Sequence record: NC_029091.1
Reading direction: 5' to 3' (one strand)
Length of the DNA: 64,000 nt
Source: Escherichia phage APCEc01
Translations under genes and position numbers: made by a program
The notes under the pieces: generated by a model
Seen by the model: the letters and a program-made list of their open reading frames with translations, nothing else
Told to the model about the DNA's origin: nothing
The model's database searches: none
In this document: positions 3,213-23,671 of the stretch, piece after piece
How positions within the stretch are numbered: position 1 is the first letter of the stretch
How the letters are laid out: each line of letters opens with the position of its first letter

Positions 3213-3898
<686 letters not shown>

Positions 3899-14183: not shown

Positions 14184-14416
14184 GTATAGCAATTTACATT
14201 AAATCAGAATCATGTGATAGTTATCTGTACACATATGATAAAGATGTGTCAGAAGAAAAAATCAAAGACGACCTTAATATGGACCTTGATATGTTCTGTC
14301 CTATTGCAGATTACAAACTTGCGGTCTCTAATAGTGAAAGTCCATCTAAAGAAACGCGCATTGAAGAATTTATGTCCGAATTAATGGCCAAATCATGGGA
14401 CCGAGATGATGAGTAA
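14180..14416 (+). CDS. hypothetical acidic protein
   Basis: ATG 14180 overlapping upstream stop; 78 aa. Confidence 0.45.
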   Translation: MSIAIYIKSESCDSYLYTYDKDVSEEKIKDDLNMDLDMFCPIADYKLAVSNSESPSKETRIEEFMSELMAKSWDRDDE

Positions 14417-14864
14417 GAAAAATAAAGTGAAAGAACTATCAGCCGGTATTATTTTCCTTACCGAAGATAAAGAATTATTCATGGGGCGTGTAACTGGTTC
14501 TCGTCCTAAAGGTGCATTAGCTCATCGGTGGGATATTCCTAAAGGCCGTGTCGAACCTGGCGAATCTCCTATTGAAGCCGCTATTCGTGAATGCGAAGAA
14601 GAAACTGGGTTTACACAATATGACCCTGCCTTCCTGAAAGACCTAGGTGAACATCATTACTCAGACAATAAGAATATTCATCTGTTCCTATATACCATCC
14701 CTGTAGAGCACGAGCAATTCAGAAACAGTGTTTGTAATTCCTATCATACATTCCCAGACGGACGACAGATTCCTGAATTTGATGCATTCGCTTTAATTAA
14801 ACCTTCTCAATGGGAATATGTAATGGGTAAATCATTATATAAGGTGCTCACTACACTCCTATAA
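14406..14864 (+). CDS. nudE: Nudix hydrolase (NudE-like)
   Basis: Nudix box GRVEPGESPIEAAIRECEEETG; immediately upstream of e as T4 e.1/nudE. Confidence 0.7.
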   Translation: MMSKKNKVKELSAGIIFLTEDKELFMGRVTGSRPKGALAHRWDIPKGRVEPGESPIEAAIRECEEETGFTQYDPAFLKDLGEHHYSDNKNIHLFLYTIPVEHEQFRNSVCNSYHTFPDGRQIPEFDAFALIKPSQWEYVMGKSLYKVLTTLL

Positions 14865-17851: not shown

Positions 17852-18156
17852 TGACCACTATTGAAGTTTTTGAATATTGTTATAACAGCCCAGTATGCAA
17901 TAAAAGGGCCCTTGTAGAAAATTACGAGATTTACCATTTTAAACCTAAACGATACCGTTTGACTAAAGGTCCGTTCGCAGGGCAGCAGGTTCTTTGTACT
18001 GCTCCTAATGCACGGTTGATGACTAGTATTCCACATTTCAAAATGGAATTTATTGACGGGCCATTTAAGGGATTAATCACTCAAAGTTTAATGGCGTTTA
18101 ATTCCGACCCATTTTTGATTAAAGAAAAAACTTGGATAAATTTATTTTCTAATTGA
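17848..18156 (+). CDS. hypothetical protein
   Basis: 102 aa; ATGA overlap with upstream gene. Confidence 0.45.
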   Translation: MMTTIEVFEYCYNSPVCNKRALVENYEIYHFKPKRYRLTKGPFAGQQVLCTAPNARLMTSIPHFKMEFIDGPFKGLITQSLMAFNSDPFLIKEKTWINLFSN

Positions 18157-18162
18157 GGTTAT

Positions 18163-18525
18163 ATGAAAGCATATCAAATTCTTGAAGGCACACACAAAGG
18201 CACTATTTATTTTGAAGACGGTACTCAAGCCCGGATTATTGTCTCTAAGACTTTTAAAGAAGACGCTATTGTAGACCCGGAAATTTTCTACGGTTTGCAT
18301 GCCCGTGAAATTGAAATTGAACATCACCCTAAAGTTAAAATTGAAGGTGGTCAACATCTGAACGTTAACGTTCTGCGTCGTGAAACTCTAGAAGATGCAG
18401 TTAAGCATCCAGAAAAATATCCGCAGCTGACCATCCGTGTATCTGGTTATGCAGTTCGCTTTAACTCTCTGACTCCGGAACAGCAGCGCGACGTTATCGC
18501 TCGCACCTTTACTGAGAGTCTATAA
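18163..18525 (+). CDS. autonomous glycyl radical cofactor (GrcA/YfiD-like)
   Basis: C-terminus [32 protein letters not shown] carries the glycyl-radical RVSGYAV fingerprint; 120 aa. Confidence 0.75.
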
Positions 18526-18749
18526 TGGCTAAATTGATTATAGAAGGGTCTGAAGATGTTTTAAAATGTTTTGCCGCCTGGTTTAGTTGCTCAGGCGAGC
18601 AATCATTCACTGAAGCATTTAGAATGGGTGATATTACCGGAAACTATCCGGCAACTGATATCACTGTACGTGGATATGGTATTAATGAGCCTATCCAATT
18701 GGTCGAATATGACCTTGCCACTGATGAGGAAATTCCTTATGTCGATTGA
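18525..18749 (+). CDS. hypothetical protein
   Basis: 74 aa; start overlaps upstream stop. Confidence 0.4.
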   Translation: MAKLIIEGSEDVLKCFAAWFSCSGEQSFTEAFRMGDITGNYPATDITVRGYGINEPIQLVEYDLATDEEIPYVD

Positions 18750-19005
18750 AGACATCAAAGGCTACAAGCCGCATACCGATGATAAAATCGGTAAAGTGAA
18801 CGCTATTAAAGATGCAGAAGTCCGTCTTGGATTGTTGTTTGATGCTCTGATTGAAGAAGCATATATCTTGAAAGAAAATGAAACAGAGCAACAAACCAAA
18901 GAAGATATGGATGCAGTGCAGGCTCTTAAGTATGCTAAGCAACATCTAAAAGAAGCCAGCATGTGGGCGTGTCGTGCAGTATTTCGACCTGAGGAAAAAT
19001 ACTAA
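18739..19005 (+). CDS. hypothetical protein
   Basis: ATG 18739 (MSIEDIKGYKPH) overlapping upstream stop; 88 aa; track ORF 18571 is an upstream extension. Confidence 0.4.
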   Translation: MSIEDIKGYKPHTDDKIGKVNAIKDAEVRLGLLFDALIEEAYILKENETEQQTKEDMDAVQALKYAKQHLKEASMWACRAVFRPEEKY

Positions 19006-19220
19006 TGGCTTCTACTATTACTGGGTTATTGGACTTTCAAGAAAAGGTCAACAAAATTTGTAGTGAATACTTAAAGTATCTTGAAGAAGACCTTGAAGAT
19101 TGTAAGGAAGAAGGCGAAGAAGACTATGCTGACCAGCGTCGACGCCAAATCGAAGAGATGAGGCATTTCGCCAATATGGTATCTAAAGAATCTTGGGCTT
19201 TAACTCCATTTTATCAATAA
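19005..19220 (+). CDS. hypothetical acidic protein
   Basis: 71 aa. Confidence 0.4.
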   Translation: MASTITGLLDFQEKVNKICSEYLKYLEEDLEDCKEEGEEDYADQRRRQIEEMRHFANMVSKESWALTPFYQ

Positions 19221-19224
19221 AGTA

Positions 19225-19272
19225 GTTTACTTCTCCTCTAGTTGTGTTACTATAGACCTGTCAACTAGAGGA
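19225..19272 (+). promoter_or_regulatory. early promoter (PeSL type)
   Basis: GTTTAC at 19225, TACTAT at 19248, perfect 10-bp inverted repeat CCTCTAGTTG / CAACTAGAGG flanking the -10. Confidence 0.6.
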
Positions 19273-19281
19273 GAAATCAAA

Positions 19282-19740
19282 ATGACTATCAATTCAGACG
19301 TTTTTATCCGCCGTAATAAACTCCGTCGAATCTTTGAAACGGAGTTCCGCAAAATAAATGCCGGTATAAAAGATGCTGCAAAGTCTCTTGGACTACCAGG
19401 CTTTCATATCAAGTATTCTCAACATCTCTTAGATCGTGCCATCCAGAGAGAAATAGATGAGAATTACGTTTTTGAATTATTTCATAAAGTAAAAAATCAT
19501 GTTAAAGAAGTTGCAGAATTTTTATCAATGCCGGCACGTCCAGATGTTGATGAAGATTTTGTCGAAGGTGTCGAATATCGCCCAGGCCGTTTAGAAATAA
19601 CTGATGGAAATCTTTGGTTAGGACTTACAGTTTGTCGCGAAAATCCGGCATTCAAAATGAAGACTCTTCAATGCAGAATGGCTATTATTAACAATAAACG
19701 ACTACCAGGAAAAGCTTCTAAAGCAGTGATTAAAATCTAG
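19282..19740 (+). CDS. regB: RegB site-specific endoribonuclease
   Basis: MTINSDVFIRRNKLRRIFETEFRKIN...LPGKASKAVIKI closely matches remembered T4 RegB; 152 aa. Confidence 0.8.
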   Translation: MTINSDVFIRRNKLRRIFETEFRKINAGIKDAAKSLGLPGFHIKYSQHLLDRAIQREIDENYVFELFHKVKNHVKEVAEFLSMPARPDVDEDFVEGVEYRPGRLEITDGNLWLGLTVCRENPAFKMKTLQCRMAIINNKRLPGKASKAVIKI

Positions 19741-19748
19741 AGGTAAAC

Positions 19749-20291
19749 ATGAGAAAAGCACTACTCGCTGGTCTATTTGCTCTTTCATTATCAGCACATA
19801 GCTCCGAGCATACTTTTAGTAATGTCCAACTCGATAACTTGAATTATGCTTATCAGTTTGGGGAACAGTTTTCTAAGGATGGAAAATTTAAAACGCATGA
19901 AAATATGCATAAGAAAGGACTTGGATACATAATGGCCGCAATACTATGGCAGGAATCATCTGCCGGTATTAATCTTAAAGATAAGAAAGGTCACCATGCG
20001 TATGGAATGTTCCAAAATTATCTACCGACAATGAGGGCAAGAATTAACCAGCTTGGTTATAATATGACTGATGCCCAAATTAAGAAAATGCTATCTAAGC
20101 GGTCTAATTCAGCCAGATGGGCTTATATCGAATTTTCTTATTGGTTAAATATACATAACGGGGATATAAGAAAAGCTATATCCTCATATAATGCGGGATG
20201 GAAGACAAGTGCCGGAAGTAAATATGCTTCTGAAGTCCTAGAAAAGGCTAATTACCTTAAATCAAATAAACTACTGGAAATAAAAGAATGA
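19749..20291 (+). CDS. secreted lytic transglycosylase-like (SLT domain) protein
   Basis: N-terminal signal peptide; ILWQESSAG...GMFQ resembles the SLT catalytic Glu-Ser motif. Confidence 0.5.
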   Translation: MRKALLAGLFALSLSAHSSEHTFSNVQLDNLNYAYQFGEQFSKDGKFKTHENMHKKGLGYIMAAILWQESSAGINLKDKKGHHAYGMFQNYLPTMRARINQLGYNMTDAQIKKMLSKRSNSARWAYIEFSYWLNIHNGDIRKAISSYNAGWKTSAGSKYASEVLEKANYLKSNKLLEIKE

Positions 20292-20635
20292 CCAAAATGT
20301 TGGCTTTAATAGTTGGCTTGGTTTCATTTAACGCTCTTGCTAATACTACATATACTGATGTAACGGAGTATACAAACAGAACGGCGTCTGATTACTGTGG
20401 TAAAAGTCAAGAGTGTAAAGTAGATTTTTCACAAAAATTGTTATATGCGTATAAAGACGGAGAAAAAGACGGGGCGTCTAGTAGGTTCAAGGCGTCTACC
20501 TTAATTAAAAGATACTATAAAAAATGGCAAATATTAGAATGCTCGGTGGCGGAACCTAAAGATAAGGCAGCATGCAATTCTATGGTGGACCGTCTAGTTG
20601 ACTCTTATAATAGAGGACTTGCAGCAAGTGATTAA
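20288..20635 (+). CDS. secreted/periplasmic hypothetical protein
   Basis: 115 aa with N-terminal signal peptide MTKMLALIVGLVSFNALA. Confidence 0.45.
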   Translation: MTKMLALIVGLVSFNALANTTYTDVTEYTNRTASDYCGKSQECKVDFSQKLLYAYKDGEKDGASSRFKASTLIKRYYKKWQILECSVAEPKDKAACNSMVDRLVDSYNRGLAASD

Positions 20636-21095
20636 AAACTATATCAAGGGCGATATTGTCGCCCTGTTTTCTAAAGGTAATAATATTGCTCATGGGTGTA
20701 ATTGTTTTCATACAATGGGCGCGGGTGTGGCAGGACAATTAGCAAAGGCTTATCCAAAAATTCTGGAAGCCGATAAACTTCAAACCGAATTCGGAGACGA
20801 GTCTAAACTCGGGACTTATTCGGTTTATGAAAAATATTTTAAGACCCATAAAGCTTATTGCTTTAATCTTTATACACAGTTTGAGCCGGGACCTAATTTT
20901 GAGTACTCTGCTTTAATGAATTGTATAATAGAATTAAATGAATTCGGAAAGAATAAGATAATAAAGCCTGTAATTTATATGCCAAGAATTGGTGCAGGTA
21001 TTGGTGGTGGAAACTGGGATGTCATCGAAGAGATTTTAGATACGTATTCTACTAAACTAGAAATTGTGATTGTTGATTGGGAACCGTTATTATGA
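20598..21095 (+). CDS. macro domain (ADP-ribose binding/processing) protein; start uncertain
   Basis: HGCNCFHTMGAGVAGQL and PRIGAGIGGGNWDVI match macro-domain glycine-rich motifs; no ATG near 5' end (TTG 20598 or GTG 20628). Confidence 0.55.
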   Translation: MTLIIEDLQQVIKNYIKGDIVALFSKGNNIAHGCNCFHTMGAGVAGQLAKAYPKILEADKLQTEFGDESKLGTYSVYEKYFKTHKAYCFNLYTQFEPGPNFEYSALMNCIIELNEFGKNKIIKPVIYMPRIGAGIGGGNWDVIEEILDTYSTKLEIVIVDWEPLL

Positions 21096-21304
21096 ATATA
21101 CATTATCCACATCCATATGACCCAAAGAATAAGGCAGTAATTATTCGTCAATGGGAACGCATTTGTCGTACCAAATGTCCAATTAATAGTCCACATGATG
21201 TAGATAAAGACTACATCGGAACATTCGTTGAATATACCTTTATTGATAAGAAAGGCCGTAAACAACATGTAGAAGAATATTGCTTAAAGGTGACATGGCT
21301 ATGA
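21092..21304 (+). CDS. hypothetical protein
   Basis: ATG 21092 overlapping macro-domain gene stop; 70 aa. Confidence 0.4.
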   Translation: MNIHYPHPYDPKNKAVIIRQWERICRTKCPINSPHDVDKDYIGTFVEYTFIDKKGRKQHVEEYCLKVTWL

Positions 21305-21507
21305 GTCAAACAAAAATTCTTACAGGTGCTAAATGCGAAAAATGCGAATGGCCTGTAGTTTTTGCTTTATGCAATGACGAAATGGCTTGTGATTTTGATT
21401 ATTGGTGTTACTGTTCGAACAAAGGTTGTAGCAATCATAAAGGTGAAGGGTTTTACTCAGGATTTTACCCTTACCCAGATTTCGTTAAAGAAGGTGAACC
21501 TAAATGA
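21295..21507 (+). CDS. Cys-rich small protein (possible zinc-binding)
   Basis: 70 aa with CEKCEW...CDFDYWCYCSNKGC; ATG 21295 after AAGG. Confidence 0.4.
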   Translation: MAMSQTKILTGAKCEKCEWPVVFALCNDEMACDFDYWCYCSNKGCSNHKGEGFYSGFYPYPDFVKEGEPK

Positions 21508-21686
21508 AATTGACTAAAGAAGAGAAAACTAAACTGTTCGAACTTATCCATGACCTATTGGATGAGCAAGCAGCCACCAATGCGTACGATGAATATGCTC
21601 CTTTGACGGACGAAGAATATCAAGCATTGTTGGAATCATTTGACAGGAAAGAACAAGAACTCATTGACTATGTGAATTCACTATAA
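21504..21686 (+). CDS. hypothetical acidic protein
   Basis: 60 aa; ATGA overlap. Confidence 0.4.
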   Translation: MKLTKEEKTKLFELIHDLLDEQAATNAYDEYAPLTDEEYQALLESFDRKEQELIDYVNSL

Positions 21687-21695
21687 GGGACTCTT

Positions 21696-22277
21696 ATGGC
21701 TAGTTTAATTTTTACCTATGCCGCTATGAACGCTGGTAAGTCTGCTTCATTACTTACTGCTGCACATAACTATAAAGAACGTGGCATGGGTGTATTAGTT
21801 CTTAAACCGGCTATTGATACTCGCGATTCAAAAGGTGAAATAGTCTCTCGTATTGGTATTCGTCAGGATGCCAATATAATTACAAAAGACATGGATATCT
21901 TTGAATTTTATAAATGGGCTGCAGCACAAAAGGATATTCATTGTGTATTTGTTGACGAAGCTCAGTTCTTAACTACTGAAAAGGTGTATCAACTTAGTCG
22001 TATTGTTGACGTGTACAATGTGCCGGTAATGGCATATGGACTACGAACAGATTTTAAAGGTAATCTATTTGAAGGTTCTCAAGCATTAATGGCTATTGCC
22101 GATAAGCTTGTTGAACTTAAAGGTGTCTGTCATTGTGGTAAAAAGGCCACAATGGTAGCTAGAGTCACGGAAGACGGACTTCCAATTACAGATGGCAGTC
22201 AAATTGAAATTGGTGATACCGATAGATATGTGTCATTATGCCGGAAGCATTGGAATGATTTGACAGGGTTGTTATAA
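21696..22277 (+). CDS. tk: thymidine kinase
   Basis: 193 aa; MASLIFTYAAMNAGKSASLL...CHCGKKATM...; matches T4 Tk length and sequence pattern. Confidence 0.88.
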   Translation: MASLIFTYAAMNAGKSASLLTAAHNYKERGMGVLVLKPAIDTRDSKGEIVSRIGIRQDANIITKDMDIFEFYKWAAAQKDIHCVFVDEAQFLTTEKVYQLSRIVDVYNVPVMAYGLRTDFKGNLFEGSQALMAIADKLVELKGVCHCGKKATMVARVTEDGLPITDGSQIEIGDTDRYVSLCRKHWNDLTGLL

Positions 22278-22280
22278 ATA
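22273..22280 (+). promoter_or_regulatory. late promoter TATAAATA
   Basis: Exact TATAAATA upstream of the 22305 ORF and rI. Confidence 0.5.
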
Positions 22281-22304
22281 CTAATATCTAACCAAGAGGT
22301 ATAT

Positions 22305-22517
22305 ATGCAGCAATTAAACGAAAGACAACTTCGTAATCTTACTGTAACCCAATTAGATGAAATCCGAAGAGAATTAGGACATTCTATTTCTCATTTAAAC
22401 GAGGATATCCGTCAAACTGGTTCTAAAGCTGATTATACACGCAAGCGCAAGCTGGAAAAATACCTCACAGATGTTAAGGCCGTCCAAAGGCGAAAAATAA
22501 ATACTGGCCAAAATTAA
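22305..22517 (+). CDS. hypothetical protein
   Basis: 70 aa; AAGAGG RBS. Confidence 0.45.
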
Positions 22518-22529
22518 CAGGAGGCCTAT

Positions 22530-22832
22530 ATGGCCTTAAGAGCGATAGCTGTCATAGCGATGCTGGGGTTTTTTGCAGCAACAACTCCTATCGTTGGTAC
22601 TGCACATATCGACCCATATTTTGATAACTTTATGGAATCAGGGATTAAAAACGTATATACTTTGTTTGAAATTCAAAATGTCGAGAATTCTGAAAAATTC
22701 TATAAGTATATGGCAAAGCATTACAAAAATAGCCCCTGTGATGATGCATTTGAATGTCATGAACAAGGCATAAAAACTGCCAGACAATTTGCCGAGTTCA
22801 TGAAAATAAAATTAGAGCCTACATCTATCTAA
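22530..22832 (+). CDS. rI: lysis inhibition regulator rI (periplasmic antiholin-binding protein)
   Basis: Signal peptide then DPYFDNFMESGIKNVYTLFE...SPCDDAFEC, matching remembered T4 RI; 100 aa. Confidence 0.7.
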   Translation: MALRAIAVIAMLGFFAATTPIVGTAHIDPYFDNFMESGIKNVYTLFEIQNVENSEKFYKYMAKHYKNSPCDDAFECHEQGIKTARQFAEFMKIKLEPTSI

Positions 22833-22838
22833 TTTACT

Positions 22839-22868
22839 AGCCCCTTCCGAAAGGTTGGGGCTTTTTGG
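22839..22868 (+). terminator. rho-independent terminator
   Basis: AGCCCCTTCCGAAAGGTTGGGGCTTTTTGG, near-identical to the 6601 terminator. Confidence 0.7.
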
Positions 22869-22877
22869 CATCTATCA

Positions 22878-22930
22878 GTTTACTTCTCCTCAGGTTGTGT
22901 TATAGTAAACCTTACTTACTAGAGGAGAAC
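22878..22930 (+). promoter_or_regulatory. early promoter (PeSL type)
   Basis: GTTTAC at 22878, TATAGT at 22901, inverted repeat TCTCCTC / GAGGAGA. Confidence 0.55.
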
Positions 22931-22933
22931 GTT

Positions 22934-23113
22934 ATGTCACGTAAAGAAAAAATTTCTAAGTTAATGTTTTTGATTGAAGAGTACGCTAATGCGGTATCTG
23001 ATTGGGAAAATGCTCATGGTTGCGAAGATGGAGACATCGACATTAACAGAGCTATGAAAAAGATGGCTGAAGCCCACACCGAATTGCAAATGTATGTTAA
23101 CGAGATTATGTGA
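22934..23113 (+). CDS. hypothetical small protein
   Basis: ATG 22934 after AGAGGAGAA; 59 aa. Confidence 0.4.
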   Translation: MSRKEKISKLMFLIEEYANAVSDWENAHGCEDGDIDINRAMKKMAEAHTELQMYVNEIM

Positions 23114-23120
23114 GGATATT

Positions 23121-23327
23121 ATGCTTTACGATTATACTGGAAAATCTGAAGACGGTGTACTTGAACTTTTACCTGAAAGCGCTGAAGATGATGATACGGT
23201 GGTGATGTTTTGTAAAAATGGCCCTGGGGATAAGGGATGGATTTATCTTCGTCAAGAAAATGACTTAATTGTTTTGGGCCCAAAACAAGTTGAAGAACTT
23301 TATCAACATTTAAAACACAATCGGTAG
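23121..23327 (+). CDS. hypothetical protein
   Basis: ATG 23121; 68 aa. Confidence 0.4.
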   Translation: MLYDYTGKSEDGVLELLPESAEDDDTVVMFCKNGPGDKGWIYLRQENDLIVLGPKQVEELYQHLKHNR

Positions 23328-23370
23328 TTTACATCTTGGTAGGACTATGTTATAGTAGTCCTATCAAAAC
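23327..23370 (+). promoter_or_regulatory. early promoter (PeSL type)
   Basis: GTTTAC at 23327, TATAGT at 23351, inverted repeat TAGGACTA / TAGTCCTA, CTATCAAAACAAACGGAG box. Confidence 0.6.
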
Positions 23371-23491
23371 AAACGGAGAACAAAATGAAACTTTTGCTTA
23401 TCGCTTATGTTGTAGTACAATACAATTATCCGATGTTTACTTATAACATGGTAAACGGCATAGTGAATCTTATTGAAACGAGTATGGTAAA

Positions 23492-23671
23492 ATGACCCGT
23501 GAACAAGCTAATAAATTGATGGAACTTATCCGTAACTTACGTGAAGCCGATTCAGATTTGAATGATGTAGCTTATCATGCAGTAAATGATAACGAAGACT
23601 TTTATGAAAATCAGGTTGATGCTTGTCTGAATGATTTGGTGAATTTTGTTGAAACTTTAATTGGTGAATAA
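23492..23671 (+). CDS. hypothetical small acidic protein (59 aa, below track threshold)
   Basis: ATG 23492 to TAA 23669-23671; a 36-codon ORF (23385..23495) precedes it. Confidence 0.35.
   Translation: MTREQANKLMELIRNLREADSDLNDVAYHAVNDNEDFYENQVDACLNDLVNFVETLIGE

Follow-up and report, generated by a model that had tools for sequence, protein, structure and literature searches.

The closest described counterpart of the gene examined here is tk.4 of phage T4, whose match to the A1pp/macro domain has been in print since 2006 (PMC1524935). T4 lacking both adfA and adfN stays resistant to DarTG2, and a further factor was predicted (PMC11825919). In the HIDEN-SEQ preprint of November 2025, a saturated T4 transposon library was screened on a DarTG2 host; tk.4 was the single significant match, a clean knock-out was sensitised and the gene was named adfM (i.e. 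anti-DarT factor Macrodomain) (bioRxiv 10.1101/2025.11.20.689424). This preprint, which precedes peer review, reported tk.4 to be dispensable under standard conditions with DarTG2 as the sole conditional phenotype, and proposed by analogy to DarG alone that AdfM removes ADP-ribose from DNA (bioRxiv 10.1101/2025.11.20.689424). The Tk.4 protein was detected in T2-infected cells, where the host small RNA ArcZ was found by RIL-seq to pair with the tk.4 transcript, the level of Tk.4 being unaffected; the T2 preprint mislabels tk.4 as a 'putative thymidine kinase' (bioRxiv 10.64898/2026.06.19.733364).

A second phage protein, gp104 of the chimallivirus PhiKZ, was also named AdfM, independently; in vitro it strips off the ADP-ribose that DarT2 adds, and N23 and K78 are its putative active-site residues (PMC13309987; Cell Rep 2026). 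Mutation of its Asn, the equivalent of N25 in the protein described below, reduced activity (PMC13309987). A cellular macrodomain enzyme, SCO6735 of Streptomyces coelicolor, efficiently hydrolyses the thymidine-ADP-ribose that DarT makes on DNA; it also rescues E. coli from DarT, and either Q85A or Q85E abolishes its activity (PMC9411070). Its authors proposed that catalysis is water-mediated, with the Gln holding the substrate in position, and linked a long mobile loop to high activity on DNA (PMC9411070).

The DNA analysed here (i.e. the window) is a stretch of 64,000 nt from Escherichia phage APCEc01 (NC_029091.1), a T4-like phage. The 2.6-kb stretch surrounding the gene has 99.8% DNA identity to the Tequatrovirus JK45, a Shigella phage, and matches to it were obtained in 656 phage records. 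Gene order (i.e. regB, vs.1, vs, tk.4, tk.3, tk.2, tk.1, tk) is the same as in T4 and was identical in the window, JK45, T4 and ime09. The encoded protein exhibited 85% identity to T4 Tk.4 (NP_049723) across 155 of 155 residues without a gap; this full-length identity, together with the shared slot flanked by vs and tk.3, identifies the gene as the ortholog of T4 tk.4 (adfM). T4 Tk.4 is likewise 155 aa in length and all family-invariant residues are common to both proteins, with differences confined to 23 of the 155 residues (e.g. G127 here but K127 in T4). The genes also differ at their starts, T4 tk.4 having an ATG and a 4-nt overlap with vs whereas a GTG and an 8-nt overlap are present here. 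The GenBank label in JK45 is 'macro domain-containing protein', and other close records carry 'macro domain protein', 'phosphatase' or 'Poa1p_like family'. The gene is therefore already annotated and described, and its recognition as a macrodomain gene, while correct, is not new and matters chiefly as confirmation. The features of the locus are listed in Table 1.

Table 1. Features of the tk.4 locus, with positions in the window.
Feature	Position	Strand	Description and basis
RegB	19282-19740		Just upstream of the chain of overlapping genes; Pfam REGB_T4 3.5e-69
Chain of overlapping genes (starts)	vs.1 19749; vs 20288; tk.4 20628; tk.3 21092; tk.1 21504; tk 21696		
vs (valyl-tRNA synthetase modifier)	20288..20635	+	Upstream neighbour; ORF list, JK45 and T4 annotations
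In-frame upstream extension (TTG 20598, TTG 20619)	20598..20627	+	Inside the 3' end of vs
Shine-Dalgarno-like GAGGA	20613..20617	+	10 nt upstream of GTG 20628; read from the sequence
Tk.4/AdfM macrodomain CDS	20628..21095	+	155 aa, GTG start, TGA stop; JK45 CDS annotated at the matching position
H22-G23-C24-N25, active-site strand end	20691..20702	+	hhalign against SCO6735; BLASTP against PhiKZ gp104
Glycine-rich loop 1, M30-G-A-G-V-A-G36	20715..20735	+	First motif of the first-pass annotation; alignment
N80-L-Y-T-Q84 motif	20865..20879	+	hhalign and hmmsearch alignments
Glycine-rich loop 2, P119-R-I-G-A-G-I-G-G-G-N-W130	20982..21017	+	Second motif of the first-pass annotation; alignment
tk.3 (DUF7202)	21092..21304	+	Downstream neighbour; Pfam DUF7202 1.6e-38; JK45 annotation

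An open reading frame is present at 20598..21095 (+), and its translation holds both strings, AHGCNCFHTMGAGVAGQLAKAY and MPRIGAGIGGGNWDVIEEIL, on which a first-pass annotation of the window had based the call of a macro domain. Position 20598 is merely where the open frame could first begin. Translation almost certainly begins at the GTG at 20628 and not at the TTG at 20598, because T4 has an ATG at the homologous base and the relatives all begin with 'MI'. The gene opens with (A/G)TG ATT in six of six relatives compared, a set that covered Tequatrovirus, a Klebsiella phage, a Vequintavirus and an Acinetobacter phage. The family alignment also starts at MI, the JK45 CDS is annotated from the base matching the GTG, and the GAGGA is kept in T4 and ime09. 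Both upstream TTG codons were ruled out as starts by the position of the T4 ATG and the MI of the relatives, and TTG 20619 lies just 1 nt beyond the GAGGA. The upstream extension is thus most likely not translated as part of the macrodomain protein, which from the GTG comprises 155 aa and 17.4 kDa. The first-pass annotation was right to call the start non-canonical and to treat the N-terminus with caution, but the frame start that it gave (i.e. 20598) did not hold and the start resolves to the GTG.

The macro fold was examined by sequence searches and modelling. Pfam Macro (PF01661) was matched with 28.2 bits (gathering score 22, E 2e-6) over profile positions 2-117 of 118 and PHROG 335 at 2e-66. 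A search of PDB sequences returned BT1257 (8e-11), Poa1p (1.6e-8), SCO6735 (5e-5), T. aquaticus DarG (9e-4) and human TARG1 (2e-3), the DarG entries as a whole ranging from 9e-4 to 4e-3; a profile built from 49 homologs improved the PDB matches to between 1e-16 and 1e-11. An AlphaFold2 model generated on the alignment of 49 homologs had a pLDDT of 95 and a pTM of 0.90, and this predicted model contains the three-layer alpha/beta/alpha macro fold with its central mixed sheet. The protein was nearer to TARG1, DarG, Poa1p and SCO6735 than to the MacroD, viral, PARG or macroH2A classes, and TARG1/OARD1 and yeast Poa1p share the ALC1-like macro fold with it over a full-length alignment. On these searches and the model, the protein is a stand-alone ALC1-like macrodomain, and the initial call of a macro domain is borne out.

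Both glycine-rich loops are conserved, and in the alignments they fall on the loops that bind ligand in TARG1, SCO6735 and BT1257, in agreement with the first reading of the two motifs as ADP-ribose-binding loops. Loop 1 aligns with MGAGIA of TARG1 and WGKGFV of BT1257/SCO6735, with G33 and A35 invariant. Loop 2 aligns with PRIGCGLDRLQW of TARG1 and PRIGCGLAGG(K/T)W of BT1257/SCO6735, with P119, I121, G122, G124 and W130 invariant. ADP-ribose is predicted to bind between these two loops.

The putative catalytic residues were compared among 120 homologs. N80, Y82 and Q84 were present in 120/120, H22 in 117/120 and N25 in 118/120, with N80-x-Y82-T83-Q84 forming an essentially invariant motif. 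Q84 stands where TARG1 and DarG have their catalytic Lys (K84 and K80, respectively) and where SCO6735 has its essential Gln85. N25 corresponds to DarG N22, PhiKZ AdfM N23 and SCO6735 N27, and H22 to SCO6735 H24; mutant data exist for residues equivalent to H22 and N25 (PMC9411070, PMC13309987). The DarG and SCO6735 sequences for these comparisons were found by querying with PhiKZ gp104 and BT1257. The hhalign comparison with SCO6735 had a probability of 98.3% and paired NLYTQ with NMIGQ and IAHGCN with IAHVCN.

These residues set the phage family apart from DarG and TARG1. The DarG macrodomain (T. aquaticus, PDB 5M31/5M3E; M. tuberculosis, 5M3I) carries FPTK with the catalytic Lys80 whereas the phage family has YTQ, and the C-terminal DarT-binding domain of DarG is absent from the phage protein. 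The score with the NCBIfam DarG equivalog NF048014 was 33.3 bits (cut-off 250), the match spanning model positions 4-146 of 338, and the PADLOC DarG model was matched at 1.2e-9 in its macro part (positions 4-145 of 329). The TARG1 catalytic dyad K84/D125 is replaced by Q84/G126, G126 lying at the site of D125. Assignment to DarG or TARG1 was rejected: neither the catalytic Lys nor, for TARG1, the Asp is there, and the NCBIfam DarG score falls well short of its threshold. PhiKZ gp104 resembles the phage protein in being a stand-alone phage macrodomain that counters DarTG2, in its name and in the shared Asn, but is near to DarG (9e-25) and carries FPTK where the present protein has a Gln for the Lys. 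Additionally, PhiKZ gp104 is imported into the phage nucleus whereas T4-like phages have no nucleus. A single 23-residue BLASTP match was obtained between the T4-type protein and PhiKZ gp104, with 20% identity by hhalign, and on sequence the T4 and PhiKZ proteins named AdfM are of different subfamilies.

The Gln-type ALC1-like macrodomains SCO6735 and BT1257, the latter from Bacteroides (PDB 5E3B and 2FG1/2AFC), have 24-30% identity to the phage protein. The likeness to the SCO6735 subclass lies in the essential Gln at the Lys position and in the H-x-x-N strand end with its His and Asn. The mobile loop of SCO6735/BT1257 is, however, 5 residues longer than in TARG1/DarG and the phage family lacks such a loop; hhalign placed a 5-residue gap in the phage family directly after the Gln, and the spacing between Q84 and Y93 was 8 residues in 102 of the 120 homologs. 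SCO6735 K34 is also an Ala in the phage protein. Full membership of the SCO6735/BT1257 subclass was ruled out as the long mobile loop that defines it is missing. Since Q84 equates to Q85, H22 to H24 and N25 to N27, the phage family would most plausibly act like SCO6735 rather than DarG. SCO6735 is a cellular enzyme and the phage protein a presumed counter-defence factor. The residual novelty with respect to the accessible literature is confined to this signature of a Gln-type, short-loop active site without the DarG lysine, and to the separation from the PhiKZ-type AdfM. The nature of the site is relevant to the design of mutants and to the question of whether inhibitors or mechanisms known for DarG can be transferred.

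Taken with the T4 genetics, these comparisons make it probable that the macrodomain, as the tk.4 ortholog, counters DarTG2 by hydrolysing thymidine-linked ADP-ribose with a SCO6735-type site. Infection would free the host toxin DarT2, which would block replication by ADP-ribosylating single-stranded phage DNA at the thymidines of TNTC motifs. The phage macrodomain would bind the ADP-ribose between its glycine-rich loops and hydrolyse the ribose-thymine bond, thereby restoring the DNA. With a Gln in place of the catalytic Lys and a Gly in place of the TARG1 Asp, the reaction would depend on positioning of the substrate by Q84, N25 and H22 together with water and not on a lysine. We infer that the 85%-identical allele acts as that of T4 does and that this action is the enzymatic removal of thymidine-linked ADP-ribose. 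The first-pass suggestion that a phage macro domain could reverse ADP-ribosylation imposed by host defences fits the genetics of T4 tk.4 against DarTG2, and had already been published for this ortholog. The gene would form one layer of a T-even anti-DarTG set that comprises AdfA, AdfN (which opposes DarTG1) and Tk.4/AdfM (which opposes DarTG2).

The same phenotype could be produced without catalysis if the protein, as a stoichiometric inhibitor or reader, bound the toxin or covered ADP-ribosylated sites. ALC1 itself binds without catalysing. Since ALC1 homologues also retain a feature that matters for the activity of SCO6735 (PMC9411070), a Gln at the position of Q84 is no proof of catalysis. 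A blocking role would also be in keeping with the missing canonical Lys and Asp, with the behaviour of AdfA and AdfB, other phage factors thought to act by DarT binding, and with the finding that dead SCO6735 Q85A still inhibits DarT in vitro, more so than dead DarG or TARG1 (PMC9411070). Such a role is nonetheless considered improbable: the strict retention of Q84, N80, N25 and H22 across the 120 homologs is what active sites typically show, the closest Gln-type relative catalyses very efficiently, and the part of DarG that binds DarT is the one that the phage protein lacks, its 33-bit match (cut-off 250) spanning positions 4-146 of 338.

Hydrolysis of soluble ADP-ribose derivatives, as by Poa1p, was also considered, with ADP-ribose-1''-phosphate, O-acetyl-ADP-ribose or defence-derived ADP-ribose signals as substrates. 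This reading would account for the 'phosphatase' and 'O-acetyl-ADP-ribose deacetylase' labels in databases and draws on the similarity to Poa1p and on an Acinetobacter phage homolog located beside NAD+ salvage genes. The database names are, however, assay-free transfers from the A1pp domain, and Poa1p, which acts on a soluble phosphate ester, has a Ser and not a Gln at or beside the position of Q84 in the HMMER alignment. To our knowledge, tRNA repair in T4 (i.e. Pnkp and Rnl) leaves no 2'-phosphate, and a source of ADP-ribose-1''-phosphate is not evident. With the sole known phenotype of the ortholog being specific to DarTG2, soluble compounds appear unlikely to be the substrates of this protein.

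T4-like phages encode three ADP-ribosyltransferases, and a macrodomain could in principle erase or tune the ADP-ribosylation or RNAylation placed on host proteins by Alt, ModA and ModB, as the first-pass annotation had envisaged in proposing regulation of the phage's own enzymes. Alt, ModA and ModB modify arginine, and we know of no ALC1-like macrodomain that cleaves the Arg-ADP-ribose linkage. The activity of SCO6735 and TARG1 extends to Glu/Asp-linked protein ADP-ribose (PMC9411070), and a bacterial macrodomain, MavL, is reported to be arginine-specific (PMC10951314). The gene does not adjoin alt or mod genes, and T4 tk.4 is dispensable in standard conditions with DarTG2 as its sole conditional phenotype. 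Because the transferases target arginine and a phenotype of this kind is not known, a role in erasing the phage's own modifications is highly improbable and the earlier proposal is unsupported.

Two properties of the protein count against the preferred reading of DNA hydrolysis. The protein is mildly acidic (pI 5.6), which is unexpected for a DNA-groove binder, and the short loop counts against an SCO6735-like high activity on DNA. A different, more tentative reading is that the T4-type macrodomains form a distinct ALC1-like catalytic subclass whose chemistry or substrates are unlike those of DarG and SCO6735. The basis for this possibility, which we regard as doubtful, is the combination of an invariant N-x-Y-T-Q with the absence of the catalytic Lys/Asp and of the long mobile loop. 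Were it true, targets might include ADP-ribosylated RNA bases or Glu/Asp-linked protein ADP-ribose, as well as the products of uncharacterised DarT-like toxins, and 'AdfM' would denote two mechanistically different families that converged on one counter-defence.

The distribution of the family was examined in protein and nucleotide collections. A total of 369 homologs was obtained from the protein collection at E<=1e-3, and tblastn detected homologs in 2840 of 50,697 phage records (about 5.6%). The tblastn homologs include those of Straboviridae, Vequintavirinae and Ackermannviridae, with Pseudomonas, Vibrio, Acinetobacter and Campylobacter phages among them. In Acinetobacter phage phi1_092033 (1-2974), the homolog directly abuts a nicotinamide phosphoribosyltransferase gene and a ribose-phosphate pyrophosphokinase gene lies further upstream, an NAD+ salvage setting unlike the T4 context. 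These neighbours hint that soluble ADP-ribose compounds may be the substrates of some family members.

At least three groups of alleles occupy the slot between vs and tk.3 in Tequatrovirus, namely the JK45 type found here, the T4 type with 85% identity and the ime09 type with 58% identity. A mosaic comparison was performed for window positions 20288-21304 with T4 and ime09. Between T4 and ime09, identity was 95-100% in vs and 82-87% in the initial ~130 nt of tk.4; it was mostly ~50% across the region matching 20761-21120 (47-58%, with one 60-nt window at 73%) and recovered to 85-93% in tk.3. The window compared with T4 had 55-75% identity in vs and 97-98% in tk.3. This vs-tk.4 mosaic fits a gene under host-defence pressure, as judged from the alignments. 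A composition profile gave a base composition like that of the neighbouring genes, so that a foreign origin was not indicated.

The macrodomain gene sits in a chain of overlapping, presumably tightly coupled genes (i.e. vs.1-vs-tk.4-tk.3-tk.2-tk.1-tk) in the pre-replicative part of a T4-like genome. The vs gene runs to a TAA (20633-20635) beyond the tk.4 start, an overlap of 8 nt (GTGATTAA) that is suggestive of translational coupling, and the tk.3 ATG overlaps the tk.4 stop codon as ATGA at 21092-21095. A promoter scan found a number of sites not above that of shuffled sequence, and the 'early region' label therefore rests on homology to T4; an Rfam scan of window positions 18000-23500 detected zero RNA families. 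Just upstream of regB, at 19225-19273 (+), a T4-early-promoter-like arrangement (GTTTAC, a 17-nt gap and TACTAT) was observed that fell below the scan threshold. This segment is probably the transcription entry point of the regB-to-tk chain. A 12-nt perfect inverted repeat (CTCCTCTAGTTG / CAACTAGAGGAG) also lies upstream of regB, and its 3' arm includes GGAG, at once the Shine-Dalgarno of regB and the motif cleaved by RegB.

Inside tk.4, at its 5' end, a G+C-rich hairpin of 8 bp (AGGGCGAT-ATT-GTCGCCCT; 20647-20665, +) is followed by GTTTTCT and was flagged as terminator-like, with a 91-nt stretch around it reaching -22.3 kcal/mol (z -2.6). The hairpin 19-mer is identical in T4 and ime09 and codes for the conserved KGDIVAL, in which the G-D and V-A codons are mutually complementary. 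Because of this complementarity, the hairpin may be a simple by-product of coding.

Other genes of the window touch on related functions. A Nudix hydrolase gene at 14406-14864 (+), ~5.8 kb upstream, contains a Nudix box (GRVEPGESPIEAAIRECEEETG), is the counterpart of T4 nudE/e.1 and is labelled 'nudix hydrolase' in JK45. T4 NudE has been reported to hydrolyse ADP-ribose, and this counterpart could dispose of the ADP-ribose freed by the macrodomain. The anti-CBASS gene acb1 (T4 57B) is present at 3443-3898 (+; Pfam Acb1 8.5e-59), so that at least two known counter-defence genes are carried in the window. Several product names in the JK45 record (JK45_00114 and neighbours) look misplaced. The vs.1 homolog (19749-20291), which has a weak match to SLT transglycosylase and a signal-peptide-like N-terminus, is labelled 'endoribonuclease RegB', and the true RegB (19282-19740) is labelled 'site-specific RNA endonuclease'.
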